Source: Capsulimonadales bacterium (GTDB taxonomy: Bacteria; Armatimonadota; Armatimonadia; Armatimonadales; Armatimonadaceae). Taken from it: a stretch of DNA of 64,000 nt. The notes below the pieces were generated by a model. That model searched no databases, had not been told where the DNA came from, and was given only the letters and a program-made list of their open reading frames with translations. This document shows, in pieces, positions 2,568 through 51,568 of the stretch (position 1 is the stretch's first letter; each line of letters opens with the position of its first letter). The DNA lies in the NCBI GenBank assembly GCA_033762295.1, contig JANRLW010000014.1, forward strand, positions 14,131 to 78,130. The letters are read 5' to 3'. The position numbers were made by a program, and so were the translations under genes.

Positions 2568-3965
2568 CTATTTCCGGCGCGGCGCGGGAGGCGGCGCGGG
2601 GTTGCCGTTGCCCACGCCCAGGTCATAGGGCAGGGGAGCGGGCGACGGTGTGGCGGGCGATGGCAGGGCTTGCGCAGGGGCCGGCGGCGGAGCGGGCGAC
2701 GGCGGCGGGATCGCGACTCCGGGTCCGGCGGGGGCGGGAGCGATCATGTCGCGCAGTTGTCCGTTGATCAACTGGGTTGCGAGCAGGGTCTGGATGACGC
2801 CGGTGATCTGGTCGGTCGCGCCGCCGGCCGCGCCGCGTCCCTCCCCGTTCGAGATGTTGACGAGTTTGGCCTGGGCCAGGGCGGAGGCGATGGCGGGCGT
2901 GATCTGGGGCAGCATCTCCAGCTGTCGGAGAGCCAGGTAGGCGTCCCCGCCCTCCCGGATGGCGTCGTTGACGGCGCGGATGGCATCGGCCTGCGCCGAG
3001 CCGAGGGCGCGGATTTTGACCGCTTCCGCTTCGGCGGCGGCTTCCGCCTGAACCCGGACCCGTGCCGCGTCGGCGTTCGCCTGCGCGATCTGGGTCGCCT
3101 TCAACTCGGCCTCACGCTGTTTGGCGAGGGCGTCCTGCCGACGGGCCTCGGCTTCGGCGACCATGGCGGCGTTCTCGGCGACCCGCTGCTCCAGGTCGCG
3201 TCGTTTATCGGAAATGGCCTGTTCCGCCTGCAGCTGCGCCTCCTTGGCCCGCCGTTCCTGGTCGGCGGCGACGATGTCGGCGTTGGCTTTGGCCTCGACC
3301 GCGGACCGGCGGCGGCGGGCCTCGGCGACCTCGCTCTGCACTTCCTTGATATTCAGCGAGTTGAAGACCAGTCCGAGGTCCTGCAATTCGCGCGAGCAGG
3401 CCGACTTGATGATGATTGCCAGACGGTCGTCATCCTCGACCGTGGATAGAGAGATCGAGGCGGCTCCGGCGGTGCCGTCGGCCTGCGTTTTGGTGGAGAA
3501 AAGTTCGTCGTGATTGAGGAGGTTGATCGCGCGGCGTCCCGTCGAGGTCAGAAGGTCCGACAGGATGGCGTTCTGCTCCGGCTCCGGGCGGGAGAAGAAC
3601 TTGTTGGCGGCGGTCGTGATCATCTCATCGGTATCGCCGACGGACACGATCGCGGAGGCGAGGACGCGCACCTTGATCGGTTTCGGAACCCCGGTCTGGC
3701 GATCGATGTCGGCGGTCTGGTCGGCGATATCGAGGTCGATGTTGATCGCCTTCGAAGGGATGGTCGTCCCGGTGGTGAAGACGGGGATTTCGATCGCCTT
3801 GCCCGGTCCCCGGTAGATCGCGGTACTGCCTCGCCAGGAGGTGACCAGGCGGATCGTCCCGGCGTCGACCGTGGTCAGAAAGCGGCTGATGATGAAGGGG
3901 ATCAGCAGAATGACAAAAACGATGACGCCGGCTCCCGCAAGTACCGGTCCCAAAAAGCCTTCCAT
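2568..3965 (-). CDS. Flotillin-like SPFH-domain protein
   Basis: N-terminal TM, SPFH domain (LQDLGLVFNSLNIKEV), AEA-rich coiled coil, LEMLPQI motif, Pro-rich tail. Confidence 0.85.
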   Translation of the reverse strand: MEGFLGPVLAGAGVIVFVILLIPFIISRFLTTVDAGTIRLVTSWRGSTAIYRGPGKAIEIPVFTTGTTIPSKAINIDLDIADQTADIDRQTGVPKPIKVRVLASAIVSVGDTDEMITTAANKFFSRPEPEQNAILSDLLTSTGRRAINLLNHDELFSTKTQADGTAGAASISLSTVEDDDRLAIIIKSACSRELQDLGLVFNSLNIKEVQSEVAEARRRRSAVEAKANADIVAADQERRAKEAQLQAEQAISDKRRDLEQRVAENAAMVAEAEARRQDALAKQREAELKATQIAQANADAARVRVQAEAAAEAEAVKIRALGSAQADAIRAVNDAIREGGDAYLALRQLEMLPQITPAIASALAQAKLVNISNGEGRGAAGGATDQITGVIQTLLATQLINGQLRDMIAPAPAGPGVAIPPPSPAPPPAPAQALPSPATPSPAPLPYDLGVGNGNPAPPPAPRRK

Positions 3966-48316: not shown

Positions 48317-48639
48317 CGTCAATTTCCGACGATCCGGGGGCCGGTTCGGTTCCCGAATTCCGCCCGTCCGCCTTCCCGTCAAGGAGACATTTTTATACAT
48401 ATATTAATCGAAGTGGCGGGGGGTCGTAGGAGCGAAACCGTTTGCCCTGTGTTTGCCCTTCAATGATATGTACTGCCTTTTACAAACGAATGTTTGCCGT
48501 CTTCGCACGATTCCGGAAGTTATGTGCAGGTTCTGCGTAATGAATGCGGTTCTTCCCAAGAGAAATTTTCTGTGCTACTTGACGTTGCATTTTGCCGCTC
48601 CCGTGCGTGTCTTGCGCGTTATCCTCGCTTAAAAAACTG

Positions 48640-48668
48640 TTGCCGGGGGGTAGCACATTTGCTATAAT
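48640..48668 (+). promoter_or_regulatory. dnaA promoter
   Basis: TTGCCG-N17-TATAAT with extended TG. Confidence 0.75.
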
Positions 48669-48781
48669 CCTGCCCGTACCCCACCACCGGTAGTGTTTTT
48701 CGCCTCGTATCGCTCGGCAACGAGCGATTTTCGCATTTCTGTCGGATGGGGATACCGGGGAAGGGTTGTGGCGAAACGACG

Positions 48782-50641
48782 GTGAGTGATCAACTTCGTT
48801 TTGAAGATGAAGAGGTCAATATCACTCTGCGGCGCGCCTGGGACCGGGCGTTGCGCACGCTGTCGTCACGTGTCAACAAGCCCACGTTCGAGACCCACAT
48901 CCGGTCGATTCGTCCGATGGCGCTGGCGGAACGCGTCGACGCCGGAAAGAATATATACTTAATTACACTAGGTGTCCCCTCGGCTTTCACCCGCGAATGG
49001 GTGGAAAAACGTCATGCCTCGCTGATCGCCGGCATCCTCGAGGAGATCTTCGACCGGGACGTTCGCCTGGAGTTCGTTCTCTCGCCGCGTGAAAAACCCG
49101 CCTCGGACGGCCGTGGGAAAACGCCATTTCCCGCTCTGTTCGGCGAGGATACCGACCTTTCGGGCGGCGGAGCTCCCTCGCCGGTCCCCTCCCCCACTCC
49201 GCCTGCTCCCGGTAAAGCGGCGACGCCTCCCGTCCTGACGGCGGATGAGGAGTTCGCACTGGCACCCGCGCCGGAGCGACCGTTAACCGTTCGCACTCCG
49301 AGATCCGTCCCGACCCCGGAAAGGCACGGTACGGTCCGAAAATCGACCGCCGACACCGCTGCGGACCGTGAGACGGCAATTGCTCCCTCCCGGGGCGTTC
49401 CGGCCCGTAGCGGGGCAAATTCCGCCGGGTATGCGGACGCGCCTCTTCTGAACCCTCGCTACACGTTCGACAATTTCGTGGTCGGCGCTTCCAATCGTCT
49501 GGCTCATGCCGGCGCACGGGCCGTCGCGGAAGCGCCGGGCGCCGTTTACAACCCCCTGTTCCTCTACGGACCGCCCGGGCTGGGAAAGACGCACCTGATG
49601 CACGCGATCGGCAACGAGATCGTCCTGCAGCACGGTATCGAATCGCATCGTATCGCCTACCTGTCCGGCGAAGCGTTCGCCTCCTCGTTCATCACGAGTT
49701 TACGGGAGCATCGAACCGACGACTTTCGCCGCCGCTGGCGTTCGATGGACCTTTTCCTGGTGGACGATATTCAGTTCATCGCCGGAAAGGAGCATACGAA
49801 GGAGGAGTTCTTCCACACTTTCAACGCCCTGTACCAGATGGGCAAACAGATCGTCATTTCGTCCGACCGTTCGCCTCGGGAGTTGCGGATGATGGACGAG
49901 CGGCTGCGCTCGCGTTTCGAATGCGGTCTGACCGCCGATATCACCCCGCCGGATCTGGAAACCCGTCTCGCCATCCTCCAGCGGAAAGCCGAGATCGAGC
50001 GCATGCGAATCTCCGACGAAGTGTTGCTGTACATGGCGAAACTTGTACAGAGTAATATCCGGACGCTGGAAGGCGCCCTGGTCAAGATCATCGCCTATGC
50101 CTCGCTTCAGAACTCTCCGGTGACCACCGAGCTGGCCGCCTCGGTGCTGGAGCACTACTACATCTCGGCCGGTATCGGGGACGCCATCGCAGCCGAAGCG
50201 AAGAACGGAAACCATGGCGCGAACGGATGGCCGGTTCCGCCGACGGATCGGTCGAACGATCGTCCTTCCGGCGCGGTCCGCAGTTCCGTCGGTTCACCGT
50301 CGTCGGCCTCCTTCGGCGTCGGACTGGCCGGTCTGCGCGGAAGTGTGACGCCCGAGGTGGTGCAGCGGGTGGTCTGCCGACGTTTCGGCCTTGACCCGGA
50401 CGCGCTGATAGGGAAGCGACGGGACCGCGAGATCGTGGTCGCTCGCCAGATCGCGATGCATCTGATGCGGGAGTTGACCGAAACAAGCCTCCCGGGTATC
50501 GGCCAGTTATTTGGCGGGAGGGACCATTCGACGGTTTTGCATGCCTGTGACAAGGTGCGCAGTTCCATCCCCCTCGACGACGACCTGAGAAGTCTGGTCG
50601 AGGACCTGACCGTCCAGATTCGAGCGCAGGCCGCCGGTTAA
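48782..50641 (+). CDS. dnaA: Chromosomal replication initiator DnaA
   Basis: Domain I (W..L..VPSAFTREWV), YTFDNFVVG, GPPGLGKTHL, VDDIQF, GGRDHSTVLHA; GTG start assumed. Confidence 0.97.
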   Translation: MSDQLRFEDEEVNITLRRAWDRALRTLSSRVNKPTFETHIRSIRPMALAERVDAGKNIYLITLGVPSAFTREWVEKRHASLIAGILEEIFDRDVRLEFVLSPREKPASDGRGKTPFPALFGEDTDLSGGGAPSPVPSPTPPAPGKAATPPVLTADEEFALAPAPERPLTVRTPRSVPTPERHGTVRKSTADTAADRETAIAPSRGVPARSGANSAGYADAPLLNPRYTFDNFVVGASNRLAHAGARAVAEAPGAVYNPLFLYGPPGLGKTHLMHAIGNEIVLQHGIESHRIAYLSGEAFASSFITSLREHRTDDFRRRWRSMDLFLVDDIQFIAGKEHTKEEFFHTFNALYQMGKQIVISSDRSPRELRMMDERLRSRFECGLTADITPPDLETRLAILQRKAEIERMRISDEVLLYMAKLVQSNIRTLEGALVKIIAYASLQNSPVTTELAASVLEHYYISAGIGDAIAAEAKNGNHGANGWPVPPTDRSNDRPSGAVRSSVGSPSSASFGVGLAGLRGSVTPEVVQRVVCRRFGLDPDALIGKRRDREIVVARQIAMHLMRELTETSLPGIGQLFGGRDHSTVLHACDKVRSSIPLDDDLRSLVEDLTVQIRAQAAG

Positions 50642-50661
50642 GCGAACCGGCGGCCTTTTTT
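50628..50661 (+). terminator. dnaA terminator insulating oriC
   Basis: AGGCCGCCGGTT-AAGCG-AACCGGCGGCCT-TTTTT spanning the stop codon. Confidence 0.8.
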
Positions 50662-50689
50662 ATTGAAGAAATAAGATATTTAATCCCCA

Positions 50690-51150
50690 TAAGCAAACAA
50701 AGTTATCCACAGGTTACCGGGGAACAACTGTTCATGGTGTTTTCCCCGGTATCGGCGGAGACAAAGACAATGAATACGATTTCGCAAAACGATTCGCTAA
50801 TCTTTAAGCAAACTAAGCAAACAAAGTTATCCACAGCCTGTGGATAACCTGTGGATAACCTGTGGATAAAGTTATCCACAGGTCGGGGGGCTGTGGAAAC
50901 TGTGGATAACTTTCGGAGTTTTCCACAGGTTATCCACAGGTTATCCACAGAAAAGGGCGAGTTATCCACAGCCTGTGGATAACTTTGTTTGCCCCTGTTT
51001 GCCCGGTATAATCGGCTCGTTTTCGTAGTCGAGGAGTCTGTTTTATGGGGATTCCGCGCGGTTTTTTCACTTTGTCACGCAAAGCAAACAAAGTTATCCA
51101 CAGGCTGGGGCGACACTACTATAACTACTACTAATCATATAGATAACACA
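50690..51150. other. oriC: Replication origin oriC
   Basis: AT-rich; 12 perfect TTATCCACA boxes (50703,50827,50839,50850,50861,50872,50901,50930,50941,50962,50974,51094) plus near-matches at 50892 and 50919; immediately 3' of dnaA. Confidence 0.95.
51116..51133. other. DnaA-trio repeats (unwinding element)
   Basis: CTA CTA TAA CTA CTA CTA after last DnaA box and GC-rich linker, followed by AT-rich tract. Confidence 0.8.
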
Positions 51151-51278: not shown

Positions 51279-51307
51279 TTGACAGGGTCAGGTCGCCGTG
51301 TCATACT
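51279..51307 (+). promoter_or_regulatory. purSQ promoter
   Basis: TTGACA-N17-CATACT with extended TG, ending 9 nt before ATG. Confidence 0.7.
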
Positions 51308-51316
51308 GACGGTGCC

Positions 51317-51568
51317 ATGCCAAAAGTGACGGTCCGTATCACCCTCAAGCCCTCTCTTCTCGACACTCAGGGACGCACGATCGAATCCGCGCTTCATCGT
51401 CTGGGATTCACCGAGGTGGACCAGCTGCGAGTCGGCAAGATTATCGAGATGCGGCTCCCGGACGACGATGCGGATTCGATCCGTACGCGGGTGTCGGCGA
51501 TGTGCGACCGGCTCCTGGCCAATCCGGTAATGGAATCGTACCGGATCGAGGTCGGGGAGGAGTCCTGA
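51317..51568 (+). CDS. purS: FGAM synthase subunit PurS
   Basis: LKPSLLDTQG..LRVGK..MCDRLLANPVMESY. Confidence 0.93.
   Translation: MPKVTVRITLKPSLLDTQGRTIESALHRLGFTEVDQLRVGKIIEMRLPDDDADSIRTRVSAMCDRLLANPVMESYRIEVGEES

Follow-up and report, generated by a model that had tools for sequence, protein, structure and literature searches.

Candidate hybrid LexA/DnaA sites in the replication origin of an Armatimonadota family

Why should some DnaA boxes of a bacterial replication origin carry a common flank that the neighboring boxes lack? The question is raised by a 64,000-nucleotide stretch of contig JANRLW010000014.1 from a Capsulimonadales bacterium (assembly GCA_033762295.1), hereafter the window, in which four of the DnaA boxes located between dnaA and purS are preceded by GCAAACA. 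The source genome comprises 5,163,139 bp (62.3% GC) in 132 contigs, and its gene calls are crude. We propose, with a probability of roughly 0.55, that this flank is the left half of the SOS operator of the clade, GCAAAC-N4-(G/T/A)TTTGC, and that the four composites are hybrid LexA/DnaA sites that place origin firing and dnaA under SOS control.

Composite sites of the origin and their conservation

The flank and its box form an identical 20-mer, GCAAACAAAGTTATCCACAG, and both the four exact copies that the initial annotation had reported and the extra half-motifs that it had placed near 50808 and 50996 (periods of 9 nt and 10 nt) are borne out by the sequence. Scores in bits, here and below, come from a position weight matrix (PWM) built from 24 distinct sites outside origins that were picked by their closeness to GCAAAC...GTTTGC. 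The elements of the origin are as follows.

50693..50712, plus strand: composite 1, left outer edge, GCAAAC-AAAG-TTATCCACA-G (14.7 bits)
50808..50813, plus strand: extra GCAAAC half-site, 9 nt before the GCAAAC of composite 2
50817..50836, plus strand: composite 2, left edge of the central box cluster, exact 20-mer
50827..50982, no strand: central cluster of 11 DnaA boxes (10 perfect and TTTTCCACA) in a dyad arrangement
50973..50992, minus strand: composite 3, right edge of the central cluster, inverted, exact 20-mer
50996..51002, minus strand: extra half-site, TGTTTGC on the plus strand, with a 10-bp period to the GTTTGC of composite 3
51084..51103, plus strand: composite 4, right outer edge, with the DnaA box that adjoins the trios, exact 20-mer
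51104..51114, plus strand: G+C-rich spacer of 11 nt, read from the sequence
51115..51139, plus strand: CTA-type DnaA-trio repeats by the usual definition of trios, the likely start of unwinding

As had been described, the composites mark the two edges of the central cluster and the two outer ends of the origin, with the trio-adjoining box among them, and the other eight perfect boxes are without the flank. The four copies of the 20-mer all lie in the dnaA-purS origin, with 0 expected and none elsewhere in the 5.16 Mb genome; tolerating up to 3 mismatches adds no match, none arose in 100 shuffles, and the composite AAACAAAGTTATCCACA occurs genome-wide only in the same four places. A chance origin of the four composites is ruled out by the shuffles and by the expected box-flank counts.

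Altogether, 13 DnaA boxes are found in 50703-51102, 12 of them perfect TTATCCACA and one TTTTCCACA, out of 15 matches in the window (4.4 expected window-wide), and the origin holds 12 of the 16 perfect boxes of the genome. This cluster adjoining dnaA has the make-up by which a DnaA-dependent oriC is recognized, and the succession of box, G+C-rich spacer, DnaA-trios and A+T-rich DNA, read at 51094-51139, recurs in the same layout in relatives, whose origins contain runs of CTACTACTA as the equivalent of the trios. The minimum of the cumulative GC skew lies at about 28-32 kb of the window, not at 50.9 kb, and, because the skew values are small, the skew neither supports nor rejects the origin call.

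Searches with DnaA in 40 genomes of relatives yielded 29 loci for comparison (below, genomes, contigs and loci are numbered with G, C and L, respectively). Of 16 genomes of the family, 15, representing 10 genera, have origins in which a DnaA box is preceded by GCAAAC at a distance of exactly 4 nt; among 193 boxes, 32 are composites, against approximately 0.04 expected by chance. The composites usually occupy the same four positions; the trio-adjoining box is among them in L002, L003, L006, L007, L017 and L029, and several genera keep the four-site layout. The spacer between hexamer and box is uniform within a genome and varies between genomes (AAAG, AACG, GAAG, AAGT or AGAG). Since the spacers differ between genomes, the composites are not copies of one recent duplication; conservation of the flank in relatives, which the initial annotation had named as the test of its proposal, is found, and a recent local duplication is ruled out.

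Duplication enters the argument in another form as well, namely, that the composites are functionless copies produced by duplication or gene conversion within a repetitive origin and carried along with the boxes. In favor of such neutral copying, the spacer is identical within each genome, composites 2 and 3 form the outer ends of a 32-nt inverted repeat (arm 50961-50992) that brackets the central cluster, and the L006 origin contains an exact 143-bp duplication spanning two composites. However, the hexamer and the 4-nt register persist in 10 genera although spacers and box variants differ, and the motif matches an independent promoter motif, which makes neutral copying highly improbable. The duplication in L006, the origin of G003, is direct and occupies 3022-3164 and 3281-3423, with each copy extending from one composite to the next.

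Wide sharing of the composite among bacteria was considered and rejected: a scan of the genomes of 185,579 species for GCAAACRRMGTTWTCCACA gave 93 loci, mostly near the rough chance estimate of about 70. All seven loci with at least five DnaA boxes belong to Armatimonas or Armatimonadota; two four-box loci (L043, from Acutalibacteraceae, and L118) were left out of the examination.

The same hexamer at promoters of SOS genes

Which protein might read the flank? In the source genome, only the origin and one promoter, that of a Y-family (ImuB-like) polymerase gene, contain clusters of at least four GCAAAC within 250 bp, with about 0.5 expected. This promoter carries the perfect palindrome CAAAC-AAAA-GTTTG after the -10 element, and the promoter of lexA, the product of which matches the Pfam families LexA_DNA_bind and Peptidase_S24, contains four copies, including the palindrome AAAAAC-TTTT-GTTTTT set against an extended -10 element. 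The best sites of the source genome precede gyrB, recN, a helix-hairpin-helix repair-type gene, mutL, an ERF recombinase gene and an ECF sigma factor gene.

Relatives present the same picture. GCAAAC or GTTTGC was found upstream of lexA in 30 of 30 cases, and the lexA promoters of a sister family have the perfect GCAAAC-N4-GTTTGC, often two per promoter (perfect in L152, L153 and L155). All seven Y-family polymerase promoters contain the palindrome, five directly after the -10 element and two (L224 and L228) beside the promoter, and 8 of 14 recN promoters come within 2 mismatches of it, with sites such as GCAAAC-AACC-TTTTGC and GCAAAC-AATC-ATTTGC. Unseeded 6-mer counts rank CAAACA (24 of 25) and GCAAAC (25 of 25) at the top in lexA promoters, and CAAACA first (11 of 14) and GCAAAC third (9 of 14) in recN promoters. 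Upstream of recA, the box is present only in L183, L178, L168 and L172; in the source genome, recA follows another gene, and no box immediately precedes it. Across 41 genomes, GCAAACNNNNDTTTGC occurs 227 times, compared with 77 for its backwards control. This distribution, with the candidate operator upstream of lexA, recN, translesion-polymerase genes and some recA genes, is the signature of a putative SOS regulon.

LexA is the favored reader because GCAAAC(A) is the top word in the lexA, recN and Y-family polymerase promoters and forms palindromes there, and LexA probably sits on the origin as well. In Gram-positive bacteria, the operator of LexA (DinR) is GAAC-N4-GTTC, the 'Cheo box', which the candidate operator of the clade resembles with A for G; the two share the order of arm, spacer and arm and the 4-nt spacer, whereas the arm here is (G)CAAAC instead of CGAAC, and the right arm in the family is often (T/A)TTTGC. 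Variation of LexA motifs between clades, including direct repeats such as the alphaproteobacterial GTTC-N7-GTTC, is described in those parts of PMC8565304 drawn on here, and direct-repeat forms with an 11-bp period are found among the present sites too. The second factor postulated by the initial annotation is hence retained in part: a second protein is the most economical reader of the flank, but it would probably not be an uncharacterised one, since the motif points to LexA.

A different sequence-specific regulator of damage or replication might instead read GCAAACA at lexA, recN, the polymerase gene, dnaA and the origin; a winged-helix response regulator that binds direct repeats as a head-to-tail multimer would be one possibility. 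Direct repeats at helical spacing are typical of winged-helix response regulators, and, of the 10 tandem GCAAAC-N3-7-GCAAAC pairs of the genome, five are accounted for by the origin, the dnaA upstream region and the lexA and polymerase promoters; in the origins of L006, L007, L012 and L017, too, tandem GCAAAC-N5-GCAAAC with an 11-bp period adjoins a box. We consider such a regulator unlikely in view of the perfect 6-4-6 palindromes upstream of sister-family lexA, the placement of the motif on the -10 element of SOS-type genes or immediately behind it, the single lexA match in each family genome, and the difference of only one base per arm from the Gram-positive LexA box, with LexA autoregulation being the standard inference. 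Moreover, LexA proteins that bind direct repeats are known, according to the same parts of PMC8565304.

Additional boxes were recorded along with these sites. SOS-type promoter boxes are located at gyrB (C71:3663, L157), at mutL (C32:12715, L163) and at the helix-hairpin-helix gene (C75:81840, L162), which has a polymerase-X-like N-terminal part; neither gyrB nor mutL is a usual member of an SOS regulon. The box GAAAACGAATGTTTGC at C103:38248 (L160) lies 55 bp upstream of the ERF-family recombinase gene, which adjoins an ATP-grasp (R2K) gene, and this may be a prophage region under LexA control. The only perfect GCAAAC-N4-GTTTGC of the source genome (C75:3793-3808, L156) is preceded by GCAGTATA and is found in a gap of about 520 bp between gene calls, with no gene recognized downstream of it. 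The 16-mer GCAAACAGATTTTTGC is present in the source genome at C32:12715 and C109:1078, and several relatives have an identical box on the contig of recA, at 2-3 kb from the gene on its upstream side (places include G013:C167:6217, G002:C427:10257, G011:C44:8730 and G008:C249:2681), a hint that a longer recA operon may be preceded by the box. Upstream of sister-family recA (L176 and L180-L182), a different motif, CGTAC-N4-GTTC, follows the -10 element; the genomes with this motif have 2-3 lexA paralogues, and a second LexA-type motif is possible.

Overlap of the candidate operator with the DnaA box

When the composite is aligned with the operator as GCAAAC-N4-[TTATCC]ACA, operator positions 11-16 coincide with DnaA-box positions 1-6. 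The flank, which had been taken for a site of its own, set at constant spacing from the box, thus reads as the left arm of a 16-bp operator that runs into the box itself. The motif is real, is kept across genera, is the same as the motif of the SOS promoters and physically overlaps the DnaA box.

The boxes of the composites differ from their neighbors. In relatives, composite boxes are mostly ATTTCCACA, TTTTCCACA or GTTTCCACA, the other boxes of the same origins being TTATCCACA; T at box position 3 is found in 22 of 32 composite boxes vs 38 of 161 others, and an ATT start in 14 of 32 vs 3 of 161. Judged by these counts, composite boxes appear to drift toward the operator arm (A/T)TTTGC and away from the DnaA consensus; Fisher values for the counts are too strong, the genomes being related. 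The trio-proximal site of L029, GCAAAC-AAGT-ATTTGC-ACA, is a full, top-scoring operator (24.1 bits) in which the DnaA core is broken (box ATTTGCACA, seen once), and GCAAAC-AACG-ATTTCC in the L002 and L007 origins is one base away from the lexA operator CCAAAC-AACG-ATTTGC of L132 and L136. Strong palindromes that are not fused to a box are found in origins as well (GCAAACATTCATTTGT in L005, 20.6 bits; ACAAACAAGTGTTTTC in L006, 20.0 bits; GCAAACGCCCATTTGC in L011, 19.7 bits). At a threshold of at least 14 bits, the PWM gives 46 matches in 15.2 kb from 17 origins vs 7 in 54.6 kb of flanks; the source-genome composites, at 14.7 bits, compare with 14.3 bits for the recN site of the same genome, and 74 positions genome-wide reach the composite score, 4 of them in the origin.

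The flank could also be part of the recognition by DnaA itself, as a low-affinity site or an in-phase A-tract bend, with no second protein involved. Escherichia coli has arrays of weak DnaA sites separated by 2 bp, the half-sites here stand in the 11-bp register of tandem TTATCCACAGG boxes, and an AAAG flank precedes two boxes that have no GCAAAC. Nevertheless, the in-register 9-mer AGCAAACAA is identical to TTATCCACA in only 1 of 9 bases in direct orientation and 4 of 9 when inverted, the same hexamer stands at SOS-gene promoters without DnaA boxes, and the composite boxes depart from the DnaA consensus, so that we regard recognition by DnaA as very unlikely. The GCAAAC hexamer does not look like a DnaA site, and a low-affinity site of the E. 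coli oriC type, the register of which fits, was rejected on this low identity. Relatives encode extra proteins of 360-630 aa that match the N-terminal domain of DnaA only (for instance, G002:C495, G007:C16, G008:C20, G009:C3 and G014). Such paralogues were rejected as binders of the flank: a full-length query of the source genome returned only its own dnaA.

The candidate sites extend to the upstream region of dnaA, and the elements surrounding the composites are as follows.

48440..48456, minus strand: tandem GTTTGC-N5-GTTTGC upstream of dnaA, 11-bp period, read from the sequence
48482..48497, no strand: near-perfect SOS-type palindrome ACAAACGAATGTTTGC, 1 mismatch to GCAAAC-N4-GTTTGC (22.1 bits)
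48640..48668, plus strand: predicted dnaA promoter-like site, TTGCCG-17-TATAAT, 10 of 12 matches in a consensus scan
48746..50641, plus strand: dnaA, 631 aa, with Pfam matches to DnaA_N, Bac_DnaA (4.6e-67) and Bac_DnaA_C (9.1e-29)
50628..50662, plus strand: intrinsic-terminator-like hairpin at the dnaA end, a 12-pair stem followed by TTTTTT
51005..51012, plus strand: GGTATAAT, speculatively a -10 element, after the tandem half-sites and pointing to the unwinding region
51279..51307, plus strand: purS promoter-like site, TTGACA-17-CATACT, from the consensus scan
51317..51568, plus strand: purS (Pfam PurS, 1.1e-29), the right border of the origin region

The palindrome at 48482..48497 lies in the intergenic space that separates dnaA from a divergent DUF6989 gene, 250 bp before dnaA and about 160 bp before the promoter-like site; it is among the five best PWM sites of the genome, and similar boxes are found upstream of dnaA in other genera. 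In the DnaA protein, approximately 135 residues between the N-terminal domain (ending at 98) and the ATPase domain (starting at 235) have no Pfam match, and the ATPase domain is separated from the C-terminal DNA-binding domain (starting at 537) by a second stretch without a match; these linkers are long and of low complexity, and the DnaA matches of relatives break around the second stretch.

These surroundings bear on whether LexA sites in the origin could simply be operators of promoters within or next to it, rather than a control on the access of DnaA. The element GGTATAAT follows composite 3 and a second half-site, its form resembles the -10 elements of relatives' recN promoters, the layout recalls the L204 recN promoter (operator, GTTTGC, GGGTATAAT), and the divergent promoter region ahead of dnaA contains the strongest site of this part of the window. 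However, the -10-like element is not kept in the origins of relatives, the consensus scan gave no promoter at 51005-51012, and nothing promoter-like accompanies composites 1, 2 and 4; conservation is seen instead in the exact 4-nt spacing to DnaA boxes and in the trio-adjoining position. A role restricted to promoters is, in our estimate, decidedly unlikely.

Several observations weigh against hybrid LexA/DnaA sites. The PWM is partly circular, because its training sites were chosen by closeness to a consensus already spotted. Of the 14.7 bits of the composite, 11.6 come from the GCAAAC arm, the right arm TTATCC contributing 1.5 of a possible 9.4 (right arms of relatives, ATTTCC, TTTTCC or GTTTCC, score 3.7-4.1 bits), and operator position 15, where the DnaA core imposes a C, has this base in none of the 24 training sites. 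Genome-wide, exact and 1-mismatch palindromes are barely more numerous than in the reversed-genome control (14 vs 10), those with 2 mismatches are at noise level (167 vs 145), and the intergenic share of GCAAACA is no higher than that of control 7-mers; the signal is carried only by site quality and clustering, not by genome-wide enrichment. The tandem direct half-sites, with their period of 9-11 bp, do not suit a simple palindromic dimer and call for a direct-repeat mode of LexA or for another protein. Damage is usually expected to block initiation, whereas a repressor released from the origin after damage would have the reverse effect. Composites are absent from the one origin read for genus g6 of the same family, where the lexA-promoter motif is present, and from the sister-family origins read (seven rich in GAGTCACA, one rich in GTGTCACA), despite the same lexA-promoter motif, so that a link between LexA and the origin is not obligatory. 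Finally, the relatives share ancestry, and counts across them overstate independence.

The absence of composites from these sister-family origins would be explained if the hybrid needs a box with the 5' half TT(A/T)TCC, resembling the arm TTTTGC; sister-family DnaA boxes are TGAGTCACA or TGTGTCACA (L023-L027, L019, L021 and L030), and one GTGTCACAGTTTGC junction is found in L018, L021 and L030. DnaA-box dialects vary within the order: G011 (L003) uses TTATCTACA, and in the G001 origin (L013), GTGTTCTAG repeats dominate, with one or two classical boxes only.

A proposed link between the damage response and initiation

LexA as the binder, the exclusion of DnaA and the direction of the effect on initiation are what we infer from these sites. 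In undamaged cells, LexA dimers would occupy the four hybrids and the sites upstream of dnaA, repressing dnaA transcription and competing with, or modulating, DnaA at the edges of the cluster, the left outer box and the trio-proximal box. LexA and DnaA are most likely mutually exclusive at the hybrids because six base pairs are shared. After damage, RecA-stimulated self-cleavage of LexA would free the boxes and raise dnaA transcription, favoring re-initiation during recovery; alternatively, LexA may aid the assembly of DnaA, which would give the opposite sign. The half-sites one helical turn away may offer the LexA dimer two modes, a palindromic one in which DnaA is excluded and a direct-repeat one in which DnaA coexists.

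To our knowledge, coupling of initiation to damage is known only through indirect routes, namely, the level or activity of DnaA, checkpoint proteins and cell-division inhibitors. Regulators embedded in origins, with sites overlapping or adjoining DnaA boxes, include Spo0A of Bacillus subtilis, CtrA of Caulobacter, MtrA of Mycobacterium, AdpA of Streptomyces and HP1021 of Helicobacter. Like these, the composites would represent a lineage-specific regulator motif in oriC that couples initiation to a signal of the cell state; unlike those response regulators and developmental factors, the motif here is that of an SOS regulon, and the signal would be the RecA-triggered cleavage of a repressor.

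The closest likeness is with E. coli uvrBp3/DARS1, where, according to the portions of the study by Wurihan et al. (2018, PMC6015884) used here, LexA-box4 overlaps DnaA-box5/6 and footprints show LexA and DnaA in competition; the same portions describe E. coli dnaA as damage-inducible although its promoter has no LexA box. In both cases a LexA operator overlaps DnaA boxes, the candidate operator here being known from its sequence. As far as these portions go, uvrBp3/DARS1 is a promoter and a DnaA-reactivation site that bears on DnaA activity, and is not oriC, whereas the four hybrids described here lie inside the origin, in a fixed register, and are kept across genera. A literature search, with subscription journals outside its scope, found no Armatimonadota LexA motif and no LexA at a chromosomal origin; PMC3323433 makes no mention of oriC, dnaA or replication initiation, nor do the parts of PMC8565304 drawn on here mention Armatimonadetes or dnaA. 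SOS operators and regulator sites within oriC are both already known, and the composites would be a new form of them.

As by-products for Armatimonadota, the analysis provides a candidate LexA motif together with a core SOS regulon, along with sites that naturally grade from DnaA-optimal to LexA-optimal and lend themselves to the study of two proteins that share one sequence. If the hybrid sites are as proposed, SOS operators within the DnaA boxes of an origin would tie the damage repressor to the initiator in a direct, physical way. More tentatively, and at somewhat less than even odds, LexA may be a direct origin-gating protein in this Armatimonadota family, with four key boxes, among them the box that would seed unwinding at the trios, and the dnaA promoter answering to RecA-triggered cleavage. 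Origin firing would in that case be coupled directly to the DNA-damage response, through a composite link that has been kept over at least 10 genera.

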